Of a stretch of DNA of 64,000 nucleotides, positions 3,934-63,434 are shown one piece after another. Position 1 is the stretch's first letter. Every line of letters starts with the position of its first letter. A program made the translations under genes and the position numbers. Under the pieces are notes generated by a model that was given only the letters and a program-made list of their open reading frames with translations, had not been told where the DNA came from and did not search any database. The stretch lies in assembly GCF_056746865.1 (NCBI RefSeq), contig NZ_CM163382.1; one strand, 5' to 3'.

Positions 3934-4093
3934 GTCGTAAAAAATGCGCAGAGTCCCTGAAGTGACCTCCGGCAGGACACTGTCTCAGGCACTCTGTGAT
4001 AACCCGAACGGTCGTCTCCGGACTGACGGTTGAATTTTCAGCGTTGTTTTTTTAATGTAAAAAACCGGTTACGGGTAAGGCTGTGAGGAGGGA

Positions 4094-4297
4094 GTGATGG
4101 TGATACGCAAAAAGAAGTGCAGGGACTGTGGAAACGCGATTACTCATAATACAGTGTGTTGCCCGTATTGTGGTTCTGTCGACCCCTTCGGCTATTACCG
4201 GAATACAGACCGTATCGTTACCATACTGCTGGCACTGATTATTGTGGTCCTGCTGACTACTGTCAGCGTCAGTGTGTATATACTGTGTAGCTGGTGA
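4094..4297 (+). CDS. small zinc-ribbon membrane protein (CxxC-x-CCPYCGS followed by one transmembrane helix)
   Basis: 67-aa ORF with strong GAGGAGGGAG ribosome-binding site directly upstream; C-terminal hydrophobic stretch IVTILLALIIVVLLTTVSVSVYIL. Confidence 0.45.
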   Translation: MMVIRKKKCRDCGNAITHNTVCCPYCGSVDPFGYYRNTDRIVTILLALIIVVLLTTVSVSVYILCSW

Positions 4298-5248
4298 GAT
4301 AACGGTTCATGTATCCCCTGAGCTGACAGTGTACCGGGTATATTAAGCGTAACCGACAGGTTCTCCTTCATACCATATTAAATTTTTCCAGGTATTGCCG
4401 CTGCCTTATTTCGTCCCATACAGGAAAACTCGTCTGGGTTTCTGACAAATACGCGAAACTCACAGCCCCTCAATATCAACCACACGCTGTAAGCCGGTAA
4501 TACCTGAAAATCAGCCTATTACCGCCCGCGCCTCCGTTACCGAACGCTCAGGTGACCAGACTGAAGCCCAGCACGCACTCGTAAAATTTGCGGTCAGTTC
4601 CGTCAGTCAGTGGGCAACCGCAGAGTTACGGGCTTCCAGGTCCACAGGAGTGAGTCTATAACGCGTGTGGGAAATCATTTTTTCTGGCGTTGACAGAACG
4701 CCTTACGGGCTGCTACTTACCCGGTGTCCCGCAATACAGCCTTAGTGTTCCGTTATCGGGGATCCGGACGCACCGCAACAACCGGGGAAGTATTTCTGGT
4801 TAGAGCTGTGTCAAGAGGGATTTCTCAGCCCCTCACTCACCGGCTCAGTCTCAGGGCAGAAGCATTAATACACTCAGTTCATGTCTTATACAGGAATGGG
4901 CATAGGGGGAGCTGGCGTGTCACTGCTGATTTTACGCATCAGCGTTCATGTATCTGCACTCTGATACAGAATGCTTCACAGCGCTCTGTTACCGGAGAGA
5001 TTTACTCTCTTAGGTTATTCTGGCAAATCCTTTACGTTACTCTCTGATGACTTCTTATATTTATAATACCAATCAGACAACCTTATCCCATCGGTGATAT
5101 CAGTCTCCTGCTCGCCAGGAACGGGCTGACTCACTGTAACCACCTCCGAAAACAACTCTGCAATTATCAGAACGCCTGCTTCTCTCCCTGTCCTCACGAA
5201 AACTATCCCCTCTTTATCGCGCGTGCGTGCGGAAGCATCTTTTCGCAA

Positions 5249-11466: not shown

Positions 11467-12318
11467 ATGGACAGTTCTGCTGTTGTTCCCCCAACTAATG
11501 AAAACACCTCGCCTCCGGAAGATACTCCCGACAACACTCCGGCCGGAGGCAATACCGGACAAGCGGAAAAGACCAGAAACGCAGGACTCACACCCATTCC
11601 TGAAAAACGTTCAGGAATGCCCCCGGAACATCTGCGGTTTGCCACGGGGTTTCCATCGCAACCGAAGATTGCCGGTCCCAGAGAAAAGCCGATGCGCACC
11701 GTGCATCCGGATAAAATCTACCGTGAAATTATATGGTTCTGCTCCAGTTACCTGCTGAAATCCGGACCAGAGGCTACGAGGACGATTATCAACTCAGTAT
11801 TCTCTGAATGGGCCAGCATAAACAATGATTACCCCTCCCCCTTTTCGTGGGTGGACAGCAGGGACAGTGAACAGTGTGACTGGTTATGGAACGCCATGCA
11901 GGTCCGGTGTGTGGGAACCCCGCTGAATCCCCTTACCCCGGAGCAGAAATACTGGTTTGCCTGCGCCACGTTTGATAACTGGGAGGGCTGGAATGAGCAA
12001 CAGGTACAGTTTTTACTGGAAAGTAATCCCAGACGGAACAGAGCGAAGTTTACGCAGGTCTCCTTCCAGGCCCCCAGGATTCAGCATAAAGCGATTCTTC
12101 TTGATGAGCTGAAAAGTGCCCGGGAGCAACAAAAAAGGCGTGATGAACGTGCTGATGGTTCCGTCCCTCTGAAACTGTCCGGAAAAATCCACAAACAGCT
12201 TGAAAGTATTGCCCGAAGTCGTGGTGTCCTCCCAAAAAAACTGCTGAATGAAATGATTGAGCAGGCGTACCATGATTTGGTGGCAACCAGGCAGAACAGC
12301 CAAATCGATTCCAGATAA
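11467..12318 (+). CDS. hypothetical protein (Pro/Thr-rich N-terminal region; C-terminal region with ribbon-helix-helix-like segment)
   Basis: ORF 11155..12318 with no ATG before 11467. GGAG precedes ATG 11467. No family recognised. Confidence 0.3.
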   Translation: MDSSAVVPPTNENTSPPEDTPDNTPAGGNTGQAEKTRNAGLTPIPEKRSGMPPEHLRFATGFPSQPKIAGPREKPMRTVHPDKIYREIIWFCSSYLLKSGPEATRTIINSVFSEWASINNDYPSPFSWVDSRDSEQCDWLWNAMQVRCVGTPLNPLTPEQKYWFACATFDNWEGWNEQQVQFLLESNPRRNRAKFTQVSFQAPRIQHKAILLDELKSAREQQKRRDERADGSVPLKLSGKIHKQLESIARSRGVLPKKLLNEMIEQAYHDLVATRQNSQIDSR

Positions 12319-12401
12319 TTTCAGACAGATATTATTTCCGTGAATCCCCCGCCACCTTTCCGGTGCGCGGGGTTTTGTCTTTTTTCACCGGGAATACATG
12401 T

Positions 12402-12637
12402 ATGAATCCGTCTGATGCCATTGAGGCAATTGAAAAACCGCTCTCCTCCCTGCCTTACTCACTTTCCCGTCACATCCTGGAACATCTGCGCAAACTCACC
12501 AGTCACGAACCCGTGCCTGGCATTATGGGTAAAAGCGGGGCCGGTAAATCCTCACTCTGTAATGCGCTGTTTCAGGGGGAGGTCACCCCGGTCAGTGATG
12601 TTCACGCCGGCCCCCGGGAAGTGCAGCGCTTCCGTCT
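12402..12637 (+). pseudogene. YeeP/YfjP-like small GTPase gene, N-terminal part (interrupted by IS21-family element)
   Basis: P-loop GKSGAGKSS, then ...REVQRFRL at the insertion junction. Confidence 0.7.
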
Positions 12638-12839
12638 TGCAAAATGGCATCTGAATCGATCGCAGTTTGGCATTCGAATCGATCATGATTTGGCATCCAT
12701 CTCCGATCACAGTTTGGCATCACAATCGATCACGATTTGGCATGCTTCCGATCATTGATTGGCATCCTGCCAGTCACTCCGGGAATTAACTCTTTTCACC
12801 ACAGTCTCCATTGCCGTGTTTAAACCAGTGGAGACGTCA

Positions 12840-14405
12840 ATGTCCAGAAAGAGAAAATCCAGGAGCACTATGGAAACCTGTTTTAAGATTCTTCAGCTCA
12901 AGTTCGACAAGAAGCTGACTAACCGTTGTATCGGACTGACGTTACACATCAGCGCCTCAACCGTTTTTGAGGTTCTTGCCCGCTTCAAAGCCTCTTCTCT
13001 GTCATGGCCATTACCTGCTGATATATCCCATGACACGCTGGAGAAACTCATTTTTCCGCCCAAAGACACCTTTGCATCAGAGCTTGTAATGCCTGACATG
13101 TTGTACCTCGATACGGAAATGAGAAAACCAGGTGTGACGCGGCAACTGTTGTGGATGGAATACAAGGCACAGGCGGGTAACAAAGCGATGGGATACTCGC
13201 ACTTCTGCCGTTGCTACCGGGAGTGGAAAAAAACGCGACGTCTCTCCATGCGCCAGGAGCATCGTGCCGGCGAAAAGCTTTTTATCGACTTCTGTGGTCC
13301 TACGGTTCCTGTTATTAATCCGGACACCGGTGAGATACGCCGCGTGGCAATCTTCGTGGCCGTAATGGGGGCGTCCAACTATACCTACGTTGAAGCGTGC
13401 GAAGGTCAGGACATGATGTCATGGTTAAATGCCCACAGCCGTTGCCTGACCTTCCTGGGCGGCGTACCGAAGCTGCTCATCCCCGATAACCTCAGAAGCG
13501 CAGTGAAAAAGGCCGATCGATATGAGCCTGTCATCAACGACAGTTATCAGGCACTGGCTGAGCACTATGGCACGGTTATCATCCCGGCCCGACCACGCAA
13601 ACCTAAAGATAAACCAAAAGCAGAAAACGGCGTCCTCATCGTCGAACGATGGCTTCTTGCCCGCATCCGTAATGAAACCTTCCACACGCTCAGGGCGCTG
13701 AATGCGCGCCTTAGGGAGTTACTGACAGACATGAATAACCGGCCAATGAAGGGGTACGGCAATCAAACCCGTGCAGAACGCTTCCGCATACTGGATGCGC
13801 CAGCACTCTCTCCGCTGCCTCTGGCACCTTATGAATACACGGAATACAAAGCTGTGAAGGTTGGCCCTGACTACCACGTTGAATATGCCCGTCACTGGTA
13901 CTCCGTTCCACACGAACTGGTCGGTCAGCGTCTGTCACTGAAGGCGGGGCAGTCGGTGGTACAGCTCTGGCACAAGGGGCAGTGTGTGGCGCAACATCCG
14001 CGCAGCACACATGAATATAAACACACAACCAATCCGCTTCACATGCCAGAGCGCCACCGGCAGCACGGGACATGGACACCGGAACGCCTGATCGAGCAGG
14101 GAAAACGTACGGGCCCGTCCACAGGCCGGGTGGTTGAATCCATGCTGAAGGCAAAACCCCATCCGGAACTGGCTTATCGTGCAGTTCTGGGGCTGCTGGC
14201 ACTTCAGAAAAAATACGGCCCGGAACGGCTGGAAAAGGCCTGTTACGTTGCCCTGCACTATAACGCCCCTGACAGACGCTTTATCGACAATCTGCTGCGT
14301 CACCATCGGGAGAACCTGGAGCTTCCATTATCCCGCCAGGGCGAACAACATCCGGCATATGCTTCAGAGCATGAAAACCTGCGTGGTCCGGGCTACTACC
14401 ACTGA
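12840..14405 (+). CDS. istA: IS21-family transposase IstA
   Basis: Long ORF with GGAG ribosome-binding site before ATG 12840; lies between IS21-type ends, directly upstream of an IstB-like gene. Confidence 0.7.
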   Translation: MSRKRKSRSTMETCFKILQLKFDKKLTNRCIGLTLHISASTVFEVLARFKASSLSWPLPADISHDTLEKLIFPPKDTFASELVMPDMLYLDTEMRKPGVTRQLLWMEYKAQAGNKAMGYSHFCRCYREWKKTRRLSMRQEHRAGEKLFIDFCGPTVPVINPDTGEIRRVAIFVAVMGASNYTYVEACEGQDMMSWLNAHSRCLTFLGGVPKLLIPDNLRSAVKKADRYEPVINDSYQALAEHYGTVIIPARPRKPKDKPKAENGVLIVERWLLARIRNETFHTLRALNARLRELLTDMNNRPMKGYGNQTRAERFRILDAPALSPLPLAPYEYTEYKAVKVGPDYHVEYARHWYSVPHELVGQRLSLKAGQSVVQLWHKGQCVAQHPRSTHEYKHTTNPLHMPERHRQHGTWTPERLIEQGKRTGPSTGRVVESMLKAKPHPELAYRAVLGLLALQKKYGPERLEKACYVALHYNAPDRRFIDNLLRHHRENLELPLSRQGEQHPAYASEHENLRGPGYYH

Positions 14406-14421
14406 CAGAAGGAACAACAGT

Positions 14422-15177
14422 ATGAGTGATAACCTGTTAAACAAACTGACCCAACTGAAACTCCCGGCGATGGCCGGGAGCCTGATACGGCAGCGGGAAA
14501 CGCCTCAGACCTACGACGAACTGTCGTTCGAGGAAAGGCTGACGCTGCTGGTTGATGACGAGCTTCTGAGCAGGGAAAACAGCCGTGTGGCACGGTTGAG
14601 AAAAAATGCCGGCCTGAAATACCAGGCAACACCGGAAGGGCTGCGCTATCCGGCCTCAAGAGGTCTGCGGGCTGAACAGATGAGAGAACTGCTGAACGGC
14701 CACTACATAACCCACAGGAAAAACCTGCTGATAACCGGTCCGACAGGATGTGGCAAGAGCTGGATAGCCAATGCGCTGGGCGAACAGGCATGTCGACAGA
14801 AACACAGCGTCCGGTACTGTAGAACCGGGCGATTACTGGAACAACTGGCTCAGGGACGTGTTGATGGCAGCTGGCTGAAATATCTGAAACAGTTGCAAAA
14901 AATACAGGTTCTAATCCTGGACGATCTGGGGCTGGAACAGTTAAGTAACGCCCAGTGTAATGACCTTCTGGAGCTCATAGAGGATCGTTACGGACAAAGC
15001 AGCACGATAGTGGTAAGCCAGTTCCCGGTAGATAAATGGCATGGTCTGATGGAGAACCCAACAACAGCAGATGCCATCCTGGACAGACTGGTACATAACT
15101 CACACCGGGTGGTCCTTCAGGGAGAGTCACTGAGGAAAAATCCCCCGGTAGTGGAAAGCAGCGAAAAAACGCGTTAA
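14422..15177 (+). CDS. istB: IS21-family helper ATPase IstB
   Basis: Walker A LITGPTGCGKS and Walker B VLILDDLG motifs; ATG 14422 with AGGAA upstream. Confidence 0.85.
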   Translation: MSDNLLNKLTQLKLPAMAGSLIRQRETPQTYDELSFEERLTLLVDDELLSRENSRVARLRKNAGLKYQATPEGLRYPASRGLRAEQMRELLNGHYITHRKNLLITGPTGCGKSWIANALGEQACRQKHSVRYCRTGRLLEQLAQGRVDGSWLKYLKQLQKIQVLILDDLGLEQLSNAQCNDLLELIEDRYGQSSTIVVSQFPVDKWHGLMENPTTADAILDRLVHNSHRVVLQGESLRKNPPVVESSEKTR

Positions 15178-15276
15178 AAAGCGGTAGAAAAAGTTAAGTT
15201 CCCGGTTGATCGAATGGATGCGAATCGCTGATCGGACTTCGATGCCAATCCGTGATCGAATAGAGCGGAATACGCA

Positions 15277-15920
15277 TCCGTCTGAATGGCCATGGTCACA
15301 GCATGGTTATCACTGACCTGCCCGGGGTGGGCGAGAGCCGGGACAGGGATGCAGAGTATGAAGCCCTGTACCGTGACATTCTGCTCGAACTGGACCTGGT
15401 ACTGTGGCTGATTAAAGCCGATGACCGTGCCCTGTCTGTGGATGAGTATTTCTGGCGACACATCCTGCACCGGGGACATCAGCGGGTACTGTTTGTGGTG
15501 ATGCAGGCCGATAAAACGGAGCCCTGCCATGAATGGGATATGGCCGGTATTCAGCCTTCTCCCGCACAGGCACAGAACATTCGCGAAAAAACGGAGGCGG
15601 TATTCCGTCTGTTCCGGCCCGTACATCGGGTTGTTGCCGTATCGGCCCGCACCGGCTGGGAACTGGATACGCTGGTCAGTGCGCTCATGACAGCACTTCC
15701 CGACCATGCCGCCAGTCCCCTGATGACCCGCCTGCAGGACGAGCTGCGCACGGAGTCTGTCCGGTCTCAGGCCCGTGAACAGTTTACCGGTGCGGTGGAC
15801 CGGATATTTGACACGGCGGAGAGCGTCTGCATTGCCTCTGTTGCACGCACGGTTCTGCGCGCCGTCCGTGACTCGGTGGTCTCTGTTGCCCGCGCGGTAT
15901 GGAACTGGATTTTCTTCTGA
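15277..15920 (+). pseudogene. YeeP/YfjP-like small GTPase gene, C-terminal part
   Basis: Continues the split GTPase: G3 motif DLPGVGES, then LVLWLIKADDR and VLFVVMQADK. Confidence 0.7.
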
Positions 15921-16040
15921 ACCCGGTGGTGATGTACCAGGCTGTTGTTACAGATTTTTAACTCCATGAAAACACTATGCAAACGCAGCCATACCCGGGT
16001 TGTCCCCTTGCGTTGTGTTTCTCAAGTTAATAGAATACAT

Positions 16041-16077
16041 CGATCGTTACTATCATATCGATCGTTATAAACGATCG
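16041..16077 (+). promoter_or_regulatory. cluster of three GATC (Dam) sites embedded in repeated CGATCGTT motifs, 60 bp upstream of the dynamin-like gene
   Basis: GATC at 16060-16063 and 16073-16076, with a third at about 16042; each inside a cgatcg palindrome (catcgatcgttact...atcgatcgttataaacgatcgttt). Confidence 0.5.
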
Positions 16078-16137
16078 TTTGTAGTAAATGACCTCCTCCG
16101 TGGTTGTCATGAAAATGCGTCTTAGGAAGGTTAAATA

Positions 16138-18534
16138 ATGCACGAAAAGAACATCGCCCTGCTTTGTGATGAAGCCGACCGACTTTTGCAACTGAACATT
16201 AATCTGCTCCGGCAAATGGTTGAGGAGCCAGATGTGTTATCTGACAGTAAGAACGAAAACAGACTGCTTTTTGATAAACAGAAAGCACTGAAAAGAATTG
16301 AGGAGCTGGAGGGCGAACAAATCAAAACCGCCCGCAGGGAGATGGTGCTGGCTGTTGTCGGCACGATGAAAGCAGGCAAATCAACCACCATCAACGCCAT
16401 TGTGGGGCAGGAAATTCTGCCTAACCGTAACCGCCCCATGACCTCTGTACCGACGCTCATCCGCCACGTTCCCGGAAAAACTGAGCCGGTTCTCCATCTG
16501 GAACATATTCAGCCTGTCCGCAATTTATTAATCACACTGCAGGAAAAACTCGCCACCCCGGCAGGACAGCAGGTCGCACAGACCCTGCAGCAAACCGGGG
16601 ATACCCGCGAACTGCTGGATATTCTGACGGATGATGGCTGGCTCAAAAATGAATACCACGGGGAGGAGGAAATCTTTACCGGACTGGCATCGTTAAACGA
16701 TCTGGTTCGTCTTGCTGCGGCAATGGGGACTGAATTTCCTTTTGATGAATACGCAGAAGTGCAGAAACTGCCGGTGATCGACGTGGAATTCAGCCATCTG
16801 GTGGGGATGGATGCATGCCAGGGAACACTCACACTGCTGGATACCCCCGGCCCTAATGAGGCCGGACAACCGCAGATGGAAGTGATGATGCGGGATCAAC
16901 TGCAGAAAGCCTCTGCGGTTCTGGCTGTGATGGATTACACCCAGATGAACTCAAAAGCGGATGAAGACGTCCGTAAAGAGCTTAATGCCATTGCTGACGT
17001 ATCAGCCGGCCGCCTGTTTGTACTGGTCAATAAATTTGATGAGAAAGACCGCAATGGCGATGGGGCAGATGCCGTACGCCAGAAAGTTCCGGCAATGCTG
17101 AACAGCGATGTGCTGCCCGCCTCCCGCGTTTATCCCGGATCCTCACGCCAGGCATACCTGGCTAACCGTGCGCTTCATGAGTTACGGAAAAACGGAACCC
17201 TTCCTGTTGATGAAGCCTGGGTCGATGATTTTATCAGAGGTGCCTTCGGTTGCATGAAAAAAGAATACGTCTGTAAAGACAGTGAACTGGCAACTGAAGG
17301 GGCGACAGACCTGTGGGAAGGCTCACTTATCGATCAACTGATAACGGAAGTCATACAGAGCTCACATTCCAGAGCTGCGGCACTGGCGGTTGACTCTGCC
17401 GCCGCAAAACTGATGCAGAATGCAGAAAATATCAGTGAATACCTGTTGTTACGCCATCAGGGGCTACAGCAAAGCATTCAGTCACTGCAGTCGCATATCA
17501 CCAGCCTGCTTGCGGATATCCGGGAAATCGCGGACTGTCAGGAGCAGATGACCACTGATGTCAGAATGGCCATGGAGGAGATCGATACTAAAACCCGGGA
17601 ATTACTGACGGGGGTCTGCACCTCACTGGAAGAGGAGCTGAATGACTATTTCAGAAGCGGTAAACGCAAAGAACAGCAAATGCTGGAGGAAGAAGACGCA
17701 GAACAACGAAGGTCTCAGTCCGGATTATGGGGGAAAATTTCTCAATGGTCCGGTATCAACAACCAGGGCCGGGAGGATTACAGGAAACGAGATTTTGCCC
17801 CGGACAGCCCCGAAATAAAATTCAGTGATCGCAGGGAAGCCCTTGAACTGATGACGCAAATCGAATCGACCGTGACCAGCCTGCACCGTGAGGCTGAAGC
17901 ACAGTTCCGGCCTGAGCTGGAGAAAATCGTCAGCGGGATTGAAACAGGTTTTCGTGGCACGGCCCTGTACGCCACAGAAAACATTGCCGGTCGCATCAAT
18001 GCCCGCCTGGAGGATGAGGGCTTTACCGTAAAAATCAGTTTTCCGGCAGTCAGCCAGTTACAGACCCGGCTCGCGGTAAAAATAAATCTGAGTGCGCTTA
18101 TGGAGGAAAGAACGGAGACCGTCACCCGTCGCCGTCGGCAGAGTGGCGTATGGGGAACCGTTTGTCGATGGTTTGGCACCAGTGACCTGGGCTGGGAAAA
18201 CTATGACGAGGATGTGAGTCGCAGCGTGATCAATATCAACAAGGTCAGAGAGGAAGTTATGTCACTGACCCGGGCATATTTCGGGGAGCTGCAGGCATCC
18301 ATTGAGCAGGATATTAACCAGCCCGTCCGCCAGGAAATCGATGCCTTTTTCTGCGCATTCAGGGAGAAAGTTGAACAACTGCGTAACACGCTGATTCAGA
18401 GCTCTGAAGATCATAAACGCGATCAGCAGGCGCAGGAACGGCTTACCGGGCGACTTCAGGCATTAAATGAAAGGGTTCCTGAGCTCATTACTGACAGTAA
18501 GGCGCTGAGGGAAGAGCTGGAGACAATGCTGTGA
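16138..18534 (+). CDS. dynamin-like GTPase, CrfC/YjdA-like (798 aa)
   Basis: G1 P-loop GTMKAGKST, G2 Thr in MTSVPT, G3 DTPG, G4 NKFD, in dynamin order, followed by a long helical region. N-terminal block MVLAVVGTMKAGKSTTINAIVGQEILPNRNRPMT closely matches recalled E. coli CrfC. AGGAAGG ribosome-binding site. Confidence 0.85.
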   Translation: MHEKNIALLCDEADRLLQLNINLLRQMVEEPDVLSDSKNENRLLFDKQKALKRIEELEGEQIKTARREMVLAVVGTMKAGKSTTINAIVGQEILPNRNRPMTSVPTLIRHVPGKTEPVLHLEHIQPVRNLLITLQEKLATPAGQQVAQTLQQTGDTRELLDILTDDGWLKNEYHGEEEIFTGLASLNDLVRLAAAMGTEFPFDEYAEVQKLPVIDVEFSHLVGMDACQGTLTLLDTPGPNEAGQPQMEVMMRDQLQKASAVLAVMDYTQMNSKADEDVRKELNAIADVSAGRLFVLVNKFDEKDRNGDGADAVRQKVPAMLNSDVLPASRVYPGSSRQAYLANRALHELRKNGTLPVDEAWVDDFIRGAFGCMKKEYVCKDSELATEGATDLWEGSLIDQLITEVIQSSHSRAAALAVDSAAAKLMQNAENISEYLLLRHQGLQQSIQSLQSHITSLLADIREIADCQEQMTTDVRMAMEEIDTKTRELLTGVCTSLEEELNDYFRSGKRKEQQMLEEEDAEQRRSQSGLWGKISQWSGINNQGREDYRKRDFAPDSPEIKFSDRREALELMTQIESTVTSLHREAEAQFRPELEKIVSGIETGFRGTALYATENIAGRINARLEDEGFTVKISFPAVSQLQTRLAVKINLSALMEERTETVTRRRRQSGVWGTVCRWFGTSDLGWENYDEDVSRSVININKVREEVMSLTRAYFGELQASIEQDINQPVRQEIDAFFCAFREKVEQLRNTLIQSSEDHKRDQQAQERLTGRLQALNERVPELITDSKALREELETML

Positions 18535-19436
18535 CTTCACCATTTATTCAACAAATTGCTGATAACCGGGTATGTCAGGTACTCACCTGTCTTCCTGAAA
18601 AATTTGTGGTTGATTTCGCAAACGGAATCGATGTTGCACAGGAGCATATCCGCACGGCCGGAGAGCGCACGTTCTTCCGGCGTTTAAAAGAGGGGCTGAC
18701 CGGCGAAGGCGCTGCACGGCAGAATGCCATCAATGCGTCGCTTGCACAGGGCGTTGAGGCGTCCCTGCGCTGGCTGACGGAGATGACAACGTCACTTGCC
18801 ACCACAAACTACGCGATTACCCGGGTAAACGACAGGGTCAGTTCACTGGTCAGTGATACAGCCAGGCTGGCGCATTATTCCGCAGATACGCGGGAGCAGT
18901 TACTCACCCTGGCCGATCAGGTTCACCATAAACTGAATCATCTTGAAGAAAAACTCCACCGTGTTGACCAGGTTCAGCGGGCGCAGTTACATCTTGAGCA
19001 GATATTCTCATGGTGGAGCGCCGGGCGATATGCGTCATTTTCCCCTGCCGGACGTTGTTATGTGGCACTTGAAGAGCTTCGCTGGGGCGCGTTTGGTGAT
19101 GTGATACGTCAGAGCGAAACAGGCCAGGTTAACCAGCTACTGGATATTCTCAGACATAAAGCATTAACGCAGATGGCACAGGAGAGTGGCGGTAGTGCAA
19201 CCGTGCGTCTGAACACTCTGGACTGGCTTGGTGGTCAGGGCCGGGAGCAGGCAGATAACGAGTGGCATGACGCGATTAACTGGCTGGGAGACTGGTGCAG
19301 TGAAGAGCAGCATCCGGTGATCTGGTCAACCACGCAGGCTGCAGAACACTTACCGGTTCGCATGCCTCGCCTCTGCTCTGCAGAACGCCTCTCTGAAAGT
19401 ATGGTCGATGAAATATTTCAGAAGGGGGCTGCATGA
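18531..19436 (+). CDS. YjcZ-like partner protein of the dynamin-like GTPase (301 aa)
   Basis: GTG start overlaps the upstream stop (ctGTGA); GGAG 10 bp upstream. Size and position mirror the crfC-yjcZ pair; family assignment not verified. Confidence 0.55.
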   Translation: MTSPFIQQIADNRVCQVLTCLPEKFVVDFANGIDVAQEHIRTAGERTFFRRLKEGLTGEGAARQNAINASLAQGVEASLRWLTEMTTSLATTNYAITRVNDRVSSLVSDTARLAHYSADTREQLLTLADQVHHKLNHLEEKLHRVDQVQRAQLHLEQIFSWWSAGRYASFSPAGRCYVALEELRWGAFGDVIRQSETGQVNQLLDILRHKALTQMAQESGGSATVRLNTLDWLGGQGREQADNEWHDAINWLGDWCSEEQHPVIWSTTQAAEHLPVRMPRLCSAERLSESMVDEIFQKGAA

Positions 19437-20503
19437 GTACAGAAATGAAAACGGGGCTGGTGCTGTCCGGTGGCGGGGCGGTGGGCGCTTATCAGGCGGG
19501 AGTGGTTAAGGCACTGGCAGAGTGTGGTACACAGATCAGCATGGTTTCAGGGGCCAGCATTGGCGCATTCAATGGTGCCATTATCGCGGCCTCTCCCGAT
19601 CTGTCAGAAGCTGCCGTACGCCTGGAGGCGCTCTGGGATCATCTGGGGAATAATCAGGTGCTGTCGGTAAACAGATTGGTTTACTTTTCATTGCTGAAAA
19701 AATTGTTCCAGGCAATGAACCTCTGCCAGATCCCCGGACGTGCAGGAGCACTGCTTACGACGCTTCTTCGCCATATATCGACAATCAACGGGTTTGACAA
19801 TCTGATGGCTCAGCCGTTGTTGTCAGATGAGCCCCTGACAGCGCTGATGGATCATTATCTTGATACTGATGCTCTGGCAGACGGGCTACCGCTGTATGTG
19901 TCGCTGTACCCCACAGAAGGGGGCATGCAGGATATTATTGACTGCATTCGTGCTGAACTGGGTGTCGGAACCACGAAAAACGCCGTTTTTCAGCATATCC
20001 AGAGCCTGCCCCGCGGACAGCAGAAAGAGGCTCTGCTTGCGTCAGCCGCGCTGCCCCTGCTGTTCCGTCCCCGTGAGGTTCAGGGGACAATGTTCGGTGA
20101 TGGTGGTATGGGAGGATGGCGAAATATGCAGGGAAATACCCCTGTGACGCCTCTGGTCGATGCCGGATGCAATATGGTGATTGTGACGCATCTGAGTGAG
20201 GGTTCTTTATGGGATCGCCAGGCTTTTCCGGACACCACAATCCTTGAGATCCGTCCCCGGAAAAGGCTGAAATATGCAGGTGATGGTGGCAACAGCGGCG
20301 GTCTGCTCAGTTTTACATCGGCACATACCGACGCCTGGCGTCAGCAGGGCTATGAAGACACGATGCTGGCGATGGAGCATATCCGGAAACCGCTGGCAGC
20401 ACGTCAGGCACTGACCCGGTCAGAGGCGGTATTGCAGAAAAGCCTGGATATAACGGAAGAGGCAGATTTGGCACTGAGAAACGCGATGGCCCGGATTAAA
20501 TAA
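19433..20503 (+). CDS. patatin-like phospholipase (356 aa)
   Basis: Oxyanion motif LSGGGAVGAYQAG, nucleophile elbow G-A-S-I-G (Ser42, nt 19556-19558), catalytic Asp in FGDGG (Asp223, nt 20099-20101). ATG overlaps the upstream stop (gcATGA). Confidence 0.85.
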   Translation: MSTEMKTGLVLSGGGAVGAYQAGVVKALAECGTQISMVSGASIGAFNGAIIAASPDLSEAAVRLEALWDHLGNNQVLSVNRLVYFSLLKKLFQAMNLCQIPGRAGALLTTLLRHISTINGFDNLMAQPLLSDEPLTALMDHYLDTDALADGLPLYVSLYPTEGGMQDIIDCIRAELGVGTTKNAVFQHIQSLPRGQQKEALLASAALPLLFRPREVQGTMFGDGGMGGWRNMQGNTPVTPLVDAGCNMVIVTHLSEGSLWDRQAFPDTTILEIRPRKRLKYAGDGGNSGGLLSFTSAHTDAWRQQGYEDTMLAMEHIRKPLAARQALTRSEAVLQKSLDITEEADLALRNAMARIK

Positions 20504-20836
20504 AGACGCCCCAAAGAAACGCCACCGCCTGTGGTGGTGTTTTTCCTGTCTGGTGTTATTGAAAATATTTTCATATATATATTACCTGAGAGAAAGTTTT
20601 ACCCCTCACCTGTCAATTCACTCACTGGAAATTTAATTATGAAATTACCTGTAAAGTTATTAATGAGCCTTATATCTCTGGTCAGCGTTATTGCACGTGC
20701 CGGGGAATATAAAAATTACAGCCGGGATGAAATAAAATACTGGCGATATACATCATACAAGGGGGGGAAACTTCCGGAAGGTTTCACTGATGAGAAATTT
20801 TCCAGCGCCATTTACAACGGAAGAATATTTACAATG

Positions 20837-21322
20837 AAACGTTTACATACCCTTATGTTATTTCTGGCGGTTCTGTTCACGGGCTTTAACTTTAACGCAG
20901 AAGCGGCTACCGTAAAACAAGCTCTTAGTTGTAACCCGGAAGCCTGGGCTGAACAACCTGGAGCGTGTCCATCAACGTACGAGTTGTACGAAGGTGACGC
21001 TACCTACAAAGCCGCTATCGACAAAGCATTAAAACCGGTCGGACTGAGCGGCATGTTCGGTAAAGGCGGCTATATGGATGGCCCTGGTGGAGGTATCACG
21101 CCAGTAAACATTAACGGTACAGTCTGGTTCCAGGGCGACGGTTGCAAAGCCAATACCTGCGGCTGGGACTTTATCGTAACACTCTATAACCCAAAAACCC
21201 ATGAAGTTGTTGGCTACCGTTACTTTGGTTTAGATGACCCGGCCTACCTGGTTTGGTTCGGTGAAATTGGCGTGCATGAATTCGCGTATCTGGTGAAAAA
21301 CTACGTAGCTGCGGTTAACTAA
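20837..21322 (+). CDS. secreted Ivy-family-like protein (loop CKANTC in place of Ivy CKPHDC)
   Basis: Signal peptide MKRLHTLMLFLAVLFTGFNFNAEA. Mature protein resembles E. coli Ivy in KAA...KGG and CKxxxCG blocks. ORF extends upstream to 20531/20639 with a second signal-like segment, so start is uncertain. AT-rich DNA. Confidence 0.45.
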   Translation, partial: KRLHTLMLFLAVLFTGFNFNAEAATVKQALSCNPEAWAEQPGACPSTYELYEGDATYKAAIDKALKPVGLSGMFGKGGYMDGPGGGITPVNINGTVWFQGDGCKANTCGWDFIVTLYNPKTHEVVGYRYFGLDDPAYLVWFGEIGVHEFAYLVKNYVAAVN

Positions 21323-21337
21323 TTTAAGGAGTCTATC

Positions 21338-21748
21338 ATGAAAACTTTTATCAAAACTTTACTCGTTGCTGTAACTATTCTGTTCTCTGTCTTCGCTACT
21401 GCGAAACAAGTAAAACTGCCAAATAACATCAAATACGTTAATACTACAGAAGCGTTTTCCTGTACCGAAATTGACGGTATGAATTGCCAGACAAAGAATC
21501 AGTTCAACTATAAAGATAACAGCTATGTTTTCGTGCTTGAACGTGGTGGTGCCTGGTGCTACGACTACACTGTCTCGGTAGTTAACCTGAAAACCGGGAA
21601 AGCACAAATGATTGAATACGGGGACAATCAACTGTGCTCAGGTAGCAACAAACCGTTCTTCGAAATCAAAAATGGCGTACCGACGGTAGGAGTCATCGAC
21701 ACATCCGGAAAACCTGTCGTTGTAGCCCAGGACAAACTTAAAATCTAA
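21338..21748 (+). CDS. small secreted Cys-containing protein, unknown function
   Basis: Signal peptide MKTFIKTLLVAVTILFSVFATA; GGAG before the ATG; 15 bp after the previous gene. Confidence 0.5.
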   Translation: MKTFIKTLLVAVTILFSVFATAKQVKLPNNIKYVNTTEAFSCTEIDGMNCQTKNQFNYKDNSYVFVLERGGAWCYDYTVSVVNLKTGKAQMIEYGDNQLCSGSNKPFFEIKNGVPTVGVIDTSGKPVVVAQDKLKI

Positions 21749-21891
21749 GGAGTAAACCATGCGTTTCTCTGCACATTATTAATATCAAAGGTAAATACAG
21801 CCCCAGCCATTGTTACCGGAAAGCCGCTTAATGCGTGGCTCGCCAGTGAAAGGCCTCTCAGACAATAAACCTTATTCATTTCACCCGTCAG

Positions 21892-21925
21892 GCCGCGTCT
21901 TCTCCGGGAGACGCGGCTTTTTTCA
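21892..21925 (+). terminator. rho-independent terminator after the secreted-protein genes
   Basis: gccgcgtct...agacgcggc stem followed by tttttt. Confidence 0.6.
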
Positions 21926-21968
21926 TTTATTGCACCAGTAAATCTTAACCACCGATAAGGAGCAAAGT

Positions 21969-22790
21969 ATGCGATTAGCAAGTCGTTTTGGTTATGCTGC
22001 AAACCAGATACGCCGTGACCGTCCGCTGACACATGAAGAACTGATACGCCATGTACCCAGTATTTTTGGGGAAGACCGGCACACCTCCCGCAGTGAACGG
22101 TATGCGTACATTCCCACCATTACCGTCCTGGAAAATCTGCAGCGGGAAGGCTTTCAGCCGTTCTTCGCCTGCCAGACCCGTGTGCGCGACCCGGGCCGCC
22201 GGGGATACACAAAACACATGCTGCGTCTGCGGCGGGCCGGAGAGATAAACGGAGAACATGTCCCTGAAATTATTCTGCTCAACTCTCATGACGGTACCTC
22301 CAGCTACCAGATGCTGCCGGGTTACTTCAGGTTCGTCTGCCAGAACGGGTGCGTCTGTGGCCAGTCTCTGGGGGAAGTGCGTGTTCCACACCGGGGAAAT
22401 GTAGTGGAGAAAGTTATCGAAGGGGCTTACGAGGTGGTGGGCGTGTTTGACCGGATAGAGGAGAAGCGTGATGCCATGCAGTCGCTGGTCCTGCCGCCAC
22501 CGGCACGCCAGGCGCTGGCACAGGCGGCACTGACTTACCGTTATGGTGACGAACATCAGCCCGTCACCACCGCCGACATTCTGACGCCGCGACGCCGGGA
22601 GGATTACGGTAAGGACCTGTGGAGCGCATATCAGACCATCCAGGAGAATATGCTGAAAGGCGGGATTTCCGGTCGCAGTGCAAAAGGAAAACGTATCCAT
22701 ACCCGGGCCATTCACAGCATTGATACCGACATTAAGCTCAATCGCGCATTGTGGGTGATGGCAGAAACGATGCTGGAGAGCCTGCGCTGA
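21969..22790 (+). CDS. DUF932-family protein (YfjQ/YafZ-like)
   Basis: 273-aa ORF in the conserved CP4-type order before the antirestriction gene; AAGGAG ribosome-binding site. Confidence 0.65.
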   Translation: MRLASRFGYAANQIRRDRPLTHEELIRHVPSIFGEDRHTSRSERYAYIPTITVLENLQREGFQPFFACQTRVRDPGRRGYTKHMLRLRRAGEINGEHVPEIILLNSHDGTSSYQMLPGYFRFVCQNGCVCGQSLGEVRVPHRGNVVEKVIEGAYEVVGVFDRIEEKRDAMQSLVLPPPARQALAQAALTYRYGDEHQPVTTADILTPRRREDYGKDLWSAYQTIQENMLKGGISGRSAKGKRIHTRAIHSIDTDIKLNRALWVMAETMLESLR

Positions 22791-22871
22791 TGCCGTTTCC
22801 CTGAGTGAGGGAATCATTCAGCTTTCGTTCCTGAAAAACACACATTTATTTGTTATTTAAGGAGTTATCTC

Positions 22872-23351
22872 ATGAAAACCGTTTCTCAGAATACCCCCAC
22901 AATTTATTCAGCTACAACACCAGAGAATAATCCGCCTCAGTTGGTTGCCAGCCTCGTCCCTGATGAACAGCGCATCAGCTTCTGGCCGCAGCATTTTGGC
23001 CTCATTCCACAGTGGGTGACCCTGGAGCCCCGTGTCTTCGGCTGGATGGACCGTCTGTGCGAAGACTACTGCGGTGGTATCTGGAATCTGTACACCCTGA
23101 ACAACGGCGGGGCATTTATGGCACCCGAACCGGATGACGATGATGACGAAACATGGGTACTGTTCAATGCCATGAACGGTAACCGCGCAGAAATGAGCCC
23201 GGAAGCCGCCGGTATTGCCGCCTGTCTGATGACGTACAGTCATCATGCCTGTCGTACGGAGAATTATGCCATGACGGTCCATTATTACCGGTTGCGGGAT
23301 TACGCCCTGCAGCATCCGGAATGCAGCGCCATTATGCGCATCATCGACTGA
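22872..23351 (+). CDS. antirestriction protein, KlcA/ArdB family (YfjX/YeeS-region paralog)
   Basis: 159-aa ORF with acidic stretch PEPDDDDDETW, typical of this family and position. Confidence 0.7.
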   Translation: MKTVSQNTPTIYSATTPENNPPQLVASLVPDEQRISFWPQHFGLIPQWVTLEPRVFGWMDRLCEDYCGGIWNLYTLNNGGAFMAPEPDDDDDETWVLFNAMNGNRAEMSPEAAGIAACLMTYSHHACRTENYAMTVHYYRLRDYALQHPECSAIMRIID

Positions 23352-23843
23352 ATGGAGAGAAGCACAATGCAACAACTTTCCTTTCTGCCCGGAGAGATGA
23401 CGCCCGGCGAGCGCAGCCTCATTCAACGGGCCCTGAAAACCCTGGACCGCCATCTTCATGAACCCGGCGTGGCCTTCACCTCCACCCGTGCAGCACGGGA
23501 ATGGCTGATTCTGAACATGGCGGGACTGGAGCGTGAAGAATTCCGGGTGCTGTATCTGAACAACCAGAATCAGCTGATTGCCGGTGAAACCCTCTTCACC
23601 GGCACCATCAACCGCACGGAAGTCCATCCCCGTGAAGTGATTAAACGCGCCCTGTATCACAATGCCGCTGCTGTGGTGCTGGCACACAATCACCCGTCCG
23701 GTGAAGTCACACCCAGCAAGGCAGACCGCCTTATCACGGAACGTCTGGTACAGGCACTGGGCCTGGTGGATATCCGGGTGCCGGACCATCTGATAGTCGG
23801 TGGCAGCCAGGTTTTCTCCTTTGCCGAACATGGTCTGCTTTAA
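23352..23843 (+). CDS. RadC-like JAB/MPN domain protein
   Basis: JAMM motif HNHPSG and upstream E (REVIKRALYHNAAAVVLAHNHPSGEVTPS). Confidence 0.8.
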   Translation: MERSTMQQLSFLPGEMTPGERSLIQRALKTLDRHLHEPGVAFTSTRAAREWLILNMAGLEREEFRVLYLNNQNQLIAGETLFTGTINRTEVHPREVIKRALYHNAAAVVLAHNHPSGEVTPSKADRLITERLVQALGLVDIRVPDHLIVGGSQVFSFAEHGLL

Positions 23844-23905
23844 CCCGTCACAACCACATCACACCTGTTTTCACTTTTATCTTCTGTCTTCAGAGGTATC
23901 CCACT

Positions 23906-24127
23906 ATGAAAATCATCACCCGTGGCGAAGCCATGCGTATTCACCGTCAGCATCCGGCATCCCGTCTTTTTCCGTTCTGTACCGGTAAATACCGCTGGCA
24001 CGGCAGTGCTGAAGCGTATACCGGTCGTGAAGTGCAGGATATTCCCGGTGTGCTGGCCGTGTTTGCTGAACGCCGTAAGGACAGTTTTGGCCCGTATGTC
24101 CGGCTGATGAGCGTCACTCTGAACTGA
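23906..24127 (+). CDS. yeeT: YeeT-family protein (DUF987)
   Basis: MKIITRGEAMRIHRQHPASRLFPFCTGKYRWHGSAEAYTGREVQDIPGVLAVFAERRKDSFGPYVRLMSVTLN. Confidence 0.8.
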   Translation: MKIITRGEAMRIHRQHPASRLFPFCTGKYRWHGSAEAYTGREVQDIPGVLAVFAERRKDSFGPYVRLMSVTLN

Positions 24128-24206
24128 GTCAGTAAGGGCATTCTGATGAGCAGAATTATCGCCATTACCGGACCGTTCTTAACCGATTTTCTGTAAGGAT
24201 TTTATC

Positions 24207-24575
24207 GTGTCAGACACACTCCCCGGGACAACACTTCCCGACGACAATCACGACCGCCCCTGGTGGGGGCTGCCCTGCACCGTGACGCCCTGTTTCGGGG
24301 CACGTCTGGTGCAGGAGGGTAACCGGTTGCATTACCTTGCCGACCGCGCCGGTATCAGAGGCCTGTTCAGCGATGCAGATGCGTACCACCTGGACCAGGC
24401 CTTTCCGCTGCTGATGAAACAACTGGAACTCATGCTCACCAGCGGTGAACTGAATCCCCGCCATCAGCATACCGTCACGCTGTATGCAAAAGGGCTGACC
24501 TGCAAAGCCGATACCCTCAGCAGTTGTGGTTACGTTTATCTGGCTGTTTATCCGACGCCCGAAATGAAAAATTAA
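24207..24575 (+). CDS. cbeA: CbeA/YeeU-family antitoxin (type IV toxin-antitoxin, cytoskeleton-bundling)
   Basis: 122-aa ORF matching the YeeU family in its conserved position upstream of cbtA. Confidence 0.8.
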   Translation: MSDTLPGTTLPDDNHDRPWWGLPCTVTPCFGARLVQEGNRLHYLADRAGIRGLFSDADAYHLDQAFPLLMKQLELMLTSGELNPRHQHTVTLYAKGLTCKADTLSSCGYVYLAVYPTPEMKN

Positions 24576-24663
24576 CTCTCCAGAATAGCCTTCTGCTACG
24601 GCCTGGTGTTTTCACCACGCCACTTTTCCATTTTTATATCTGCATATCAGGAAAATCTTCAGT

Positions 24664-25037
24664 ATGAAAACATTACCTGTATTACCCGGGCAGGCGGCCA
24701 GTTCTCGCCCGTCTCCTGTTGAAATCTGGCAGATACTGCTGTCCCGACTGCTGGACCAGCACTATGGCCTCACACTGAATGACACACCTTTTGCCGATGA
24801 ACGTGTGATTGAGCAGCATATTGAGGCAGGCATTTCACTGTGTGATGCGGTGAACTTTCTCGTGGAAAAATACGCGCTGGTGCTACCGACCAGCCGGGAT
24901 TCAGCGCCTGTACCCGCTCTCAGTTAATAAACAGCATCGATATCCTCCGGGCTCGCAGGGCGACCGGCCTGATGACCCGCGACAATTACAGAACGGTAAA
25001 TAACATTACCCTGGGTAAGTATCCGGAGGCGAAATGA
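24664..25037 (+). pseudogene. cbtA: CbtA/YeeV-family toxin gene with a 1-bp deletion (frameshift)
   Basis: N-terminal 80 aa match CbtA, then the frame breaks near 24883 (gtgctaccgac where gtgcgtaccgac is expected). The canonical C-terminus INSIDILRARRATGLMTRDNYRTVNNITLGKYPEAK is present in the +1 frame, ending at 25037. Confidence 0.7.
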
Positions 25038-25228
25038 TGACACTGGAAGCCGACAGCGTTAACGTACAGGCGCTGGATATGGGGCACATTGTCGTTGACA
25101 TTGATGGTGTTAATATCACTGAACTGATTAATAAGGCCGCTGAAAACGGTTATTCACTCCGCGTGGTGGATGACCGTGACTCTACCGAAACACCGGCAAC
25201 TTATGCCAGCCCTCACCAGTTGCTGTAA
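25034..25228 (+). CDS. yeeW: YeeW-family protein
   Basis: 64-aa ORF MMTLEADSVNVQALDMGHIVVDIDGVNITELINKAAENGYSLRVVDDRD. Confidence 0.7.
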   Translation: MMTLEADSVNVQALDMGHIVVDIDGVNITELINKAAENGYSLRVVDDRDSTETPATYASPHQLL

Positions 25229-25384
25229 GACAATGCAGTGATGCAGGGTATAGTGCCATTAACCACAGAAACAGCACTGTTGTCCTGTATTAAGCAGGCA
25301 AGAGAAGATGTCCTTACCCTGCGCCATCTGCAGCTTCTGCACCAGAACCGGTGAATCTCACTCAACAGGCTTCATTTCCCCTGA

Positions 25385-25415
25385 CGCCAGCCTGAATACA
25401 GCTGGCGTTTTCATT
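25385..25415 (+). terminator. rho-independent terminator downstream of yeeW
   Basis: cgccagc / gctggcg stem followed by ttttcattt. Confidence 0.55.
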
Positions 25416-25612
25416 TATAAACAGAAAGGAAAACCGATAATAATGGAATGGACGCCCCGACCATGAAGCAACGGTAGGATATTACTGATAAACCTTCCAG
25501 TGGAGGTGCGTTATGGCCGTTTTAACGATTAGCATTGACCTGACAAAAAATGAATTCCAAATCCACGGTCTGGGTAGGAACAGAAAAATCTAAGCTCAGA
25601 AAACGGATTAAA

Positions 25613-25785
25613 GTAAGCGTCAACGGAGCACCGTATTGACGCTTATTTATTGGTGAGAACTACGTTCCATGGCAGGAGTTCGTCAACACGGTTGGAGGGC
25701 CATTCCGGCAGTATGCTCAGAATATGGCGCAGATACGCTTCCGGATCGATACCGTTCAGACGGCAGGTGCCTGCTTTTCCGGCAA
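25613..25785 (-). mobile_element. IS66-family remnant: terminal repeat plus last ~40 codons of a TnpC (yoeD-like)
   Basis: GTAAGCGTCAACGG terminus at 25613. Minus-strand translation of 25653-25780 gives ...GIDPEAYLRHILSILPEWPSNRVDELLPWNVVLTNK, an IS66 TnpC C-terminus distinct from the 7245-9682 copy. Confidence 0.6.
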
Positions 25786-25799
25786 CAAGCAGGAATCTC

Positions 25800-26025
25800 A
25801 GCGCTGAAGCAGGAATTAGAGGTAAAAACGCCCTACCGGGCCATGAATCACCCGGTCATTGGAGTAGTAACCAAAGCAGATTTAGCCAGCATGGAACAAA
25901 TATCTTTGGTGAAAAGTTGGTTACGGGAAGCTGGAGCGCACAACGTGTTAGTAACCAGTGCAGTTAATAACAATGGAGTTACAGAACTTTTTGCCTTGCT
26001 GCATACAGAAGAAGGCTGTTGTTAA
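25800..26025 (+). pseudogene. EutP/PduV-like GTPase fragment (yoeF-like)
   Basis: C-terminal-like segment NHPVIGVVTKADLASMEQISLVKSWLREAGAHNVLVTSAVNNNG with no credible N-terminus. Confidence 0.35.
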
Positions 26026-62349: not shown

Positions 62350-63434
62350 TACTGGCGGCCCTCATAGTTCTGTTCAATCCACGATTGATAGGCGCCACTT
62401 TTCACATTATCAACCCATTTTGTATTGGACAGGTACCATTCCACCGTCTTTCGAATCCCGCTCTCAAACGTTTCTTGCGGTTTCCAGCCCAATTCACGGC
62501 TAATTTTATCGGCATCGATCGCATAACGGCGATCATGCCCTGGGCGATCAGCAACATAAGTAATTTGCTCACGATAAGATTTCTCTTTCGGTACAATCTC
62601 ATCCAGCAAATTACAAATAGTGAGCACTACATCAATGTTTTTCTTTTCGTTGTGCCCACCAATGTTATAAGTTTCACCCGCTTTACCTTCGGTTACGACG
62701 GTATATAATGCACGCGCATGATCTTCAACATACAGCCAATCACGAATTTGATCCCCTTTGCCATAAATAGGTAATGCCTTACCTTCCAGAGCATTAAGAA
62801 TTACTAGTGGAATCAATTTTTCCGGAAAGTGATAAGGACCGTAGTTATTCGAACAGTTAGTCACAATGGTCGGTAAACCATAGGTACGTTTCCACGCGCG
62901 GACTAAATGATCGCTGGATGCTTTGGATGCGGAATAAGGGCTGCTTGGTGCGTAAGCTGTTGTCTCAATAAATAAGGGTAATTTTTCTTTATTATTTACT
63001 TCGTCAGGATGAGGCAAATCACCATAGACTTCGTCAGTAGAAATATGATGAAAACGGAAGCTATTTTTCTTGTCGCTATCAAGAGCAGACCAGTAATTGC
63101 GAGCAGCTTCCAAAAGGACATAAGTACCAACAATATTGGTTTCAATAAATGCCGCAGGGCCTGTAATTGAACGGTCAACATGGCTTTCAGCAGCCAGGTG
63201 CATCACTGCATCCGGCTGATGCTGAGAAAAAATTCGCGCCATTGCAGCAGCATCGCAAATATCCGCATGTTCAAAAACATAGCGTTCAGAATCAGAAACA
63301 TCAGCAAGTGATTCCAGGTTTCCGGCGTACGTTAATTTATCGACATTAACAACACTATCCTGCGTATTATTTATAATGTGACGAACTATAGCAGAACCAA
63401 TAAATCCTGCGCCACCAGTAACAAGTATCTTCAC
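62349..63434 (-). CDS. rmlB: dTDP-glucose 4,6-dehydratase
   Basis: [43 protein letters not shown]... Confidence 0.97.

Follow-up and report, generated by a model that had tools for sequence, protein, structure and literature searches.

What decides when the dynamin operon of a CP4-44-type genomic island is expressed? The question is raised by a short cluster of Dam sites in the leader of this operon, found in a stretch of 64,000 nucleotides (nt) from contig NZ_CM163382.1 of NCBI RefSeq assembly GCF_056746865.1, which is the window referred to throughout this work. The island of the window occupies the chromosomal site of CP4-44 in K-12, adjoining tmaR, yeeA, sbmC and the his operon. Three GATC sites lie in the 217-bp spacer that separates a YeeP-family GTPase gene from the gene coding for a dynamin-family GTPase. 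A first reading, made from the letters alone (the sequence-only reading), had proposed that this cluster could be a Dam-dependent phase switch like that of agn43. Our analysis indicates, with a probability of roughly 75%, that the cluster is a truncated copy of the agn43 Dam/OxyR epigenetic switch that now controls the dynamin operon, and that the operon is probably expressed only in some cells. The observations behind this reading are the homology with agn43, the chimeric structure of the spacer, the match to the OxyR motif, the distribution of the fused leader and the absence of methylation at the same sites of a close homologue.

The sequence-only reading had pointed to per-site methylation as the place where such a switch should become visible, and single-molecule real-time (SMRT) data are available for E. 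coli CFT073. In this strain, 18 GATCs were described as unmethylated on both strands (Blow et al. 2016, PMC4752239, S5 Table), with unmethylated sites defined by a signal below ~10% methylation at a coverage of at least 20-fold (PMC4752239). CFT073 has two dynamin loci whose leaders are 98% identical to the window (212/217 and 213/217 nt), and at both loci unmethylated GATCs are located 96, 78 and 65 nt 5' of the start codon, which are exactly the offsets of the window sites to the start codon at 16138. All three GATCs are unmethylated on both strands of both loci, and the agn43 loci of the same dataset are equally unmethylated (Table 1). Agn43-type switches account for 12 of the 18 protected GATCs in CFT073, and half of those 12 stand before dynamin operons.

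The paper that reported these data names only the six agn43 sites and labels a second three-site cluster, present in two copies, as 'upstream of TonB dependent receptor', with no link drawn between these sites and the dynamin operon or the agn43 switch (PMC4752239). This second cluster appears to be the pair of CFT073 dynamin leaders, because the receptor gene, c2518, has two unmethylated sites and is present in a single copy. These two further unmethylated GATCs are located at NC_004431 2357478 and 2357504, just upstream of the TonB-dependent receptor gene beside the island. A search for work linking the dynamin operon (c2520 and c0287 in CFT073) to a Dam/OxyR/agn43 switch returned no paper in the searchable literature.

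Phase variation of agn43 is a heritable and reversible switching that occurs at about 1e-3 per generation, with expression locked OFF when dam is lost and locked ON when oxyR is lost. The sequence-only reading had stated that in K-12 the position between yeeP and yeeR is held by flu (agn43) with three GATCs, and this is indeed the case (L001 5318, 5337 and 5350); between yeeP and flu the sequence reads TAATAGAATaaaaCGATCaatatctattttatCGATCGTTtatatCGATCG. By annotation, isrC, the leader transcript of flu, begins at the G of the first GATC (L001 5318), 6 nt downstream of the -10 hexamer. When the leader of the window was aligned to the agn43 regulatory region, as had also been suggested, the core that extends from TAATAGAAT to GATC-III was 78-82% identical to K-12 flu, O157 cah, CFT073 agn43a/b and the copies of Citrobacter and Enterobacter. 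The 60-nt flanks of the core, on the other hand, were 44-53% identical, against 49 +/- 3% for shuffled sequence, with the upstream flank of cah as the one exception (63%). The regulatory region of the Ag43/Cah gene of strain 2013C-4187 also aligns to the core of the window. No copy compared departs from TAATAGAAT, and in all of them 14 nt lead from the start of this motif to that of the first GATC, with 13 nt from GATC-II to GATC-III. A core of high identity between flanks at background level points to a conserved island common to the agn43 region and not to a convergent look-alike. The choice between inheritance and convergence, which the sequence-only reading had left open, is thus decided for inheritance by the core identity of ~80%, the flanks at the level of shuffled sequence and the chimeric spacer; convergence was rejected in view of the same core identity and the common position after a GTPase gene.

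The spacer is made of two parts, an agn43/cah promoter and GATC region that goes from 15921 to ~16093 and a dynamin-proximal leader of 44 bp. Both parts are found separately in O157:H7 TR01, where the order is GTPase, switch, cah, a 110-bp spacer and dynamin operon; from ~16094 onward, the window agrees letter for letter with the 44 nt that end the cah-dynamin spacer of TR01 just before the dynamin ATG, and L003 7288 is where the megablast homology of the fused forms begins. Absent from the window are the autotransporter gene, the ~66 nt that follow its stop codon and the remainder of the agn43-type leader with the IsrC terminator. No match to the IsrC/IS102 RNA (RF00124) or to any other Rfam family was found in 12000-26000 at E values up to 1, which is consistent with deletion of the leader part that contains the IsrC terminator. 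The cah-dynamin junction was found in 635 genomes, and no promoter or terminator was predicted in the cah-dynamin spacer; for this reason, the dynamin operon may have been read from the cah promoter already before the deletion. The locus most likely originated from an island with the order GTPase, switch, agn43/cah and dynamin operon, in which a deletion would have brought the switch directly before the dynamin operon. We favor a deletion as the simplest history, since in K-12, 2013C-4187 and CFT073 switch, leader and gene also occur as a full cassette without any dynamin operon.

The predicted -10 hexamer is part of TAATAGAAT, and a transcription start transferred by alignment from the K-12 isrC 5' end would give a 5' untranslated region (UTR) of 96 nt. 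OxyR sites were searched by comparing 15-mers with ATAGnTnnnAnCTAT, the symmetric form of the half-site of Toledano et al., of which PMC2909390 quotes a slightly different form. Three predicted half-sites were obtained with 8/10 matches each: 16030-16044, which overlaps the -10 box and GATC-I, 16039-16053, which contains GATC-I, and 16061-16075, which spans GATC-II to GATC-III, so that at the sequence level the three of them together would cover all three GATCs. The half-sites at 16039 and 16061 are separated by the canonical 7 nt, with 16/20 matches together, and those at 16030 and 16061 by 16 nt. These two are the only pairs in the window with half-sites scoring at least 8 at such spacings, when simulations gave 0.04 pairs per window. 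The first and third half-sites are shared by K-12 flu, cah and the Citrobacter copy, in which their separation is 17 nt.

Other features of this leader were also considered. GATC-II and GATC-III form an 8-bp inverted repeat (CGATCGTT ATA AACGATCG) followed by TTTGT (16059-16077), which looks like a terminator in a simple scan and probably reflects the dyad symmetry of OxyR half-sites instead. The possibility of a structured RNA element in the leader was rejected, given the null Rfam result and a 5' UTR fold that was not significant (z = -1.69). Within the predicted 5' UTR, base pairing would be possible between the Shine-Dalgarno AGGAAGG (16124-16130) and a CCUCCUCC stretch at 16093-16100.

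Taken as an agn43-type switch, the locus would work as follows. A sigma-70 promoter (-35 TTGCGT at 16008, -10 TAGAAT at 16031) would start transcription at ~16042. In the OFF state, an OxyR tetramer on 16030-16075, lying over the -10 box, the start site and the three GATCs, would block transcription and at the same time shield the GATCs from Dam. In the ON state, Dam would methylate the three GATCs after replication, OxyR binding would be prevented and the operon would be transcribed. Both states would copy themselves, and a clonal population would be expected to hold heritable ON and OFF lineages.

Published expression data are compatible with such behavior. In E. coli MP1, the lysogen MP13 was compared with the cured strain KP7, using two colonies of each (Pick and Raivio 2026, PMC12922286), and the homologous dynamin/RdcB/phospholipase operons were strongly differential between them in both media; the strongest up-regulation of all, again in both media, was that of a five-gene cluster on island 8, and according to the authors the regulation of these dynamins had not been described (PMC12922286). 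The genes of this cluster are homologous and consecutively numbered and behave as one differentially expressed unit, and we infer that they are the same five genes as in the window. The MP1 pattern is what would be seen if separately derived lineages had inherited different states of the switch, one ON and the other OFF; this is supporting evidence and not proof. The pitfall of comparing clonal colonies is documented for agn43 (PMC3764049).

Several points weigh against the agn43-type switch. The GATC spacing is 18/13 in the dynamin-linked copies and 19/13 in every agn43-type copy examined, and a switch with the 18-nt spacing could behave differently, being for example biased or locked OFF. 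The simple promoter scan missed the TTGCGT/TAGAAT pair, whose -35 matches only 3/6 bases, and called the overlapping TTAATA-18-TATCAT instead. What the CFT073 data show is protection from Dam; the role of OxyR in this protection, the place of the transcription start and the reversibility of the switching are drawn from analogy with agn43, as are the dependence on Dam and OxyR and the bimodality of expression. Among the E. coli alleles, 2/12 GATC positions are variable against 14/45 positions outside (Fisher p = 0.48), the polymorphism of the fused alleles being too sparse to show selection on the GATCs. Finally, the authors of the MP1 study have another explanation for the up-regulation, which they read as prophage crosstalk (PMC12922286).

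The 18-nt spacing arises by a 1-bp deletion between GATC-I and the CTAT element, present in all dynamin-linked copies, and brings the middle half-site (ATCGATCGTTACTAT) into the canonical 7-nt register with the downstream half-site. We treat this spacing as a variant and not as an exclusion, because protection from Dam was kept in CFT073. The same deletion is the basis of the alternative that survives best, although we consider it unlikely: that OxyR or another protein protects the GATCs, and the fused switch no longer varies, having become a constitutive repressor site, locked OFF, as a leftover of the deletion. The operon would then be silent or expressed only under special conditions. The shorter spacing creates a canonical 7-nt predicted OxyR site (16039-16053 and 16061-16075) that might bind more tightly, and both CFT073 copies are under ~10% methylated, as a locked state would have it. 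However, the phase-varying agn43 loci were equally unmethylated in the same CFT073 culture, and a mostly OFF population is expected either way. Furthermore, the homologous operon is strongly expressed in one MP1 lineage, so an ON state exists, and the three GATCs are kept in 48/51 instances of the fused leader.

It is less likely still that the operon is under some other control, such as induction by a resident prophage, as proposed for Kapi1 in MP1, or another promoter, with the cluster as a passive remnant. The prophage crosstalk favored by the MP1 authors would fit this view, as would the fact that the start of transcription in the leader is placed by alignment and not by mapping. But MP13 and KP7 were separately derived, so that crosstalk is no more likely an explanation than a difference in phase state. 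In the promoter scan, the stretch from the GTPase stop codon to the ATG gave no other promoter-like site, and in the window an IS21-family element lies between the region and any transcription from upstream. A passive remnant, moreover, would not be expected to lack methylation at all three GATCs, and to do so in two separate copies.

That a protein other than OxyR protects the GATCs, in a different type of switch that merely shares sequence with agn43, seems very improbable to us. It would accommodate a spacing 1 bp off that of agn43 and an OxyR site that is a prediction from motif matches, but the protected segment corresponds by homology to the OxyR target mapped in agn43 and fits the OxyR consensus, and OxyR is the only factor known to protect the GATCs of agn43 in OFF-phase cells.

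There is finally the question of whether three GATCs in so short a space need any explanation. Positions 16041-16079 read CGATCGTTactatcatatCGATCGTTataaaCGATCGTT, and each GATC is enclosed by the octamer CGATCGTT (starting at 16041, 16059 and 16072), in agreement with the sequence-only reading, which had noticed three GATCs within about 35 bp inside a repeated motif. The three sites span 35 bp and GATC-III starts 65 nt 5' of the ATG at 16138. The gap to the ribosome-binding site had been given as 60 bp and has to be corrected, since 44 nt were measured from the last CGATCGTT to AGGAAGG. The 64-kb window holds 3 copies of CGATCGTT, all within 39 bp, and three copies anywhere were obtained in just 6.8% of first-order Markov simulations of the window. 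No further GATC was found within 600 bp on either side of the cluster. At least one GATC triple within 36 bp occurred in 64% of the simulated windows and is not unusual, and the window has two further triples of this kind, at 41165 and 62517. Nevertheless, a chance accumulation of GATCs without function can be practically dismissed, since the common occurrence of triples does not extend to the clustering of all CGATCGTT copies of the window at this one place, the core is ~80% identical to agn43 switches of several species between random flanks, which is the decisive evidence, and the homologous sites are unmethylated in vivo.

The triple at 62517-62549 (spacing 14/15 nt) lies inside an rfbB-like coding sequence on the minus strand and is consistent with chance. 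Two other GATC clusters, at 12658-12753 and 15208-15257, were rejected as regulatory leaders, being the multiple terminal repeats of the IS21-family element, in which the GATCs recur with a period of ~23 bp in the motif GATC...TTGGCAT.

Of 5426 complete E. coli genomes, 1985 (~37%) carry the 217-bp spacer. A metagenome scan anchored on TAATAGAAT and the dynamin-proximal leader, and not on the GATCs, gave 42 loci, which together with the genome loci retrieved for this work make 51 instances with 17 distinct alleles; 48 of the 51 keep the three GATCs at the 18/13 spacing. The NCTC9699-type allele lost GATC-I by an 18-bp deletion between CGATCGTTA repeats (equivalent to 16037-16054; L008 3990-4040), which left two GATCs, and may be a locked or altered switch; it was found in ~7 of ~1900 genomes with the fused leader. 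Two single contigs have a point change in GATC-III. Contig JAIJJM010000733.1 (L016, 1.5 kb), labelled as part of a Collinsella metagenome-assembled genome, contains an E. coli cah-type switch and leader; its origin is almost certainly in the Enterobacteriaceae, and its place in an actinobacterial assembly a binning error.

When one genome per species was scanned, the same core, with the 19/13 spacing, was also seen in Citrobacter braakii, C. amalonaticus and Enterobacter wuhouensis. In all three, the switch precedes two small open reading frames (ORFs) of 154 and 157 amino acids (aa) with signal-peptide-like N-termini and no family match. The upstream region was examined in C. braakii alone, where the switch follows a YeeP-like GTPase gene; downstream of the small ORFs, this species has a weak match to a phage/plasmid-like protein family at the position of DUF932 in the window and then an ORF with no family match. 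Further upstream in C. braakii (L015 6547-10105), ATPase-like and helicase-like ORFs form an arrangement that by eye is Gabija-like. A GTPase gene precedes the switch in every locus examined for it. Judged by gene order, the switch travels with the GTPase gene and is predicted to drive at least three kinds of cargo. A wider proposal, to which we give an even chance, is that the YeeP-GTPase gene and the agn43-type switch form a general phase-variable slot in CP4-44-type islands of Enterobacteriaceae, that the dynamin operon is expressed by bet-hedging in a minority of cells, and that both the Kapi1 'regulation' and the CFT073 'TonB-receptor' GATCs are read-outs of phase state. If so, the slot would have received the Ag43/Cah adhesins as one cargo, the dynamin-like/YjcZ-like/patatin operon of ~37% of E. 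coli as another and, in Citrobacter and Enterobacter, a pair of small secreted proteins as a third.

Table 1. Coordinates of the switch, its homologues and the surrounding genes; positions are those of the window unless another sequence is named.
Feature	Position	Strand	Remarks
GATC-I, Dam site	16042-16045	.	read from sequence; homologous site unmethylated in both CFT073 copies
GATC-II, Dam site	16060-16063	.	18 nt after GATC-I; homologous site unmethylated in CFT073
GATC-III, Dam site	16073-16076	.	13 nt after GATC-II, as in agn43; homologous site unmethylated in CFT073
Predicted -35 hexamer TTGCGT	16008-16013	+	17 nt upstream of -10; position matches TTGTCC (K-12 flu) and TTGCGT (cah)
Predicted -10 hexamer TAGAAT	16031-16036	+	part of TAATAGAAT, invariant in 14/14 switch copies compared
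Predicted transcription start	16042	+	G of GATC-I; transferred by alignment from K-12 isrC 5' end
Predicted OxyR binding region	16030-16075	.	three half-sites, each 8/10 vs ATAGnTnnnAnCTAT; consensus scan
Fusion junction	16091-16096	.	left, agn43/cah-type leader; right, the 44 nt preceding the dynamin ATG in O157
Shine-Dalgarno AGGAAGG of dynamin gene	16124-16130	+	read from sequence
CFT073 agn43 copy	NC_004431 1225386/405/418		spacing 19, 13; unmethylated (PMC4752239)
CFT073 agn43 copy	NC_004431 3491586/605/618		spacing 19, 13; unmethylated (PMC4752239)
CFT073, upstream of dynamin gene at 2358550	NC_004431 2358454/472/485	+	spacing 18, 13; unmethylated (PMC4752239)
CFT073, upstream of dynamin gene ending at 268662	NC_004431 268724/737/755	-	spacing 13, 18; unmethylated (PMC4752239)
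C. braakii switch and small ORFs	L015 ~3977-5160	-	other two species: L014, L017
YeeP-family GTPase gene, 5' part	12402-12637	+	split from 3' part by IS21-family element
IS21-family element (istA, istB)	12638-15272		inserted in YeeP-like GTPase gene
YeeP-family GTPase gene, 3' part	15273-15920	+	blastn vs uninterrupted gene of CP033884
Dynamin-family GTPase, 798 aa	16138-18534	+	paralogue of CrfC/YjdA/RdcA; RefSeq annotation of identical loci
YjcZ/RdcB-family protein, 301 aa	18531-19436	+	Pfam PF13990, E 4.7e-70; RefSeq annotation
Patatin-like phospholipase, 356 aa	19433-20503	+	RefSeq annotation; weak N-terminal phospholipase matches, NCBIfam and PADLOC
Two small genes	20639-21322, 21338-21748	+	RefSeq annotation
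Intrinsic-terminator-like hairpin, strong	21890-21919	+	13 pairs and T run; likely unit end

The gene order of the island is YeeP-family GTPase, 217-bp spacer, dynamin GTPase, YjcZ/RdcB-family protein, patatin-like phospholipase, two small genes and a terminator, and 3' of the terminator come DUF932, antirestriction, yeeS, yeeT, cbeA, cbtA and yeeW; no homologue of K-12 YeeR was found in the window. The dynamin protein scores 556 bits with NCBIfam NF007368, below the equivalog cut-off of 1146, and the island copy has been described as having only ~30% amino-acid identity to rdcA-rdcB of K-12 (PMC12922286). For the two small genes, no family match was found in NCBIfam or PADLOC, and they are probably the end of the same transcription unit. 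A weak terminator-like hairpin follows the patatin gene (20523-20539) and the strong one follows the fifth gene, a layout that suggests a three-gene core with read-through to five genes and would match the five-gene cluster of MP1. PADLOC found no catalogued defense system in the cargo, with weak partial matches to LeoBC and phospholipase effector models. In strain KMi025, an IS21-family element is located inside the dynamin gene instead of the GTPase gene.

To our knowledge, few gene families are under Dam-dependent phase variation: pap-like fimbriae, agn43, gtr, opvAB and few others. The mechanism proposed here is already known, and it is the capture of an intracellular dynamin/phospholipase operon by the switch that is apparently unreported. 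If correct, it would add to that list an operon present in about a third of sequenced E. coli, with carriers that include CFT073, UTI89, ST131, O157, O145 and O103. It would also explain 6 of the 18 unmethylated GATCs of CFT073 and the 'most strongly up-regulated' cluster in the transcriptome of an E. coli lysogen. A role in phage defense or membrane remodelling has been proposed by others for the dynamin operon, and tests of its expression, phenotype or phage defense would depend on the colony picked, as they do for agn43. More generally, the locus would illustrate how a deletion can hand an existing epigenetic switch to the adjacent operon.

Compared with agn43 itself (K-12 flu, CFT073 agn43a/b and O157 cah), the locus is alike in TAATAGAAT, the offset of GATC-I, the 13-nt spacing of GATC-II and GATC-III and the distance of the -35, in the OxyR-like half-sites ATAGAATnnAnCGAT and ATCGTTnnnAnCGAT common to both, and in its position after a YeeP-family GTPase gene in a CP4-44-type island. 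It differs in cargo, an autotransporter in agn43 and the dynamin-like/YjcZ-like/patatin operon here, and in the spacing of GATC-I and GATC-II, which is 19 nt in agn43 and 18 nt here. Moreover, agn43 has a full 5' UTR (IsrC, RF00124) with a terminator, whereas the leader described here is cut ~17 nt after GATC-III.

The gtr (P22, LT2) and opvAB systems follow the same logic as the one proposed here, since OxyR does not bind methylated sites and, once bound, keeps them from being methylated (PMC2909390, PMC4856963), and in these Salmonella systems the OxyR half-sites also contain GATCs. However, the four GATCs of gtr and opvAB are grouped in two pairs, and OxyR has alternative sites upstream of the promoter, from which it can also activate, while the window locus has, as in agn43, a single predicted site over promoter and start, and has no sequence homology with them. 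The pap-type Dam/Lrp switches resemble our proposal in that methylation of the GATCs of a regulatory region fixes ON and OFF states that are inherited, but their two GATC boxes are spaced by 102 bp and work together with Lrp and a PapI-like protein (PMC2909390); here the GATCs are 18 and 13 nt apart and none of the pap features is present. As for the cargo, the closest comparison is rdcA-rdcB (yjdA-yjcZ) of K-12, which belongs to the FlhDC/FliA flagellar regulon and activates DgcE (PMC6510439). The first two genes of the island operon, coding for a CrfC/RdcA-like dynamin GTPase and its YjcZ-family partner, are paralogous to this pair, and the island copy differs from it by adding a patatin-like phospholipase and by sitting behind an agn43-type switch.

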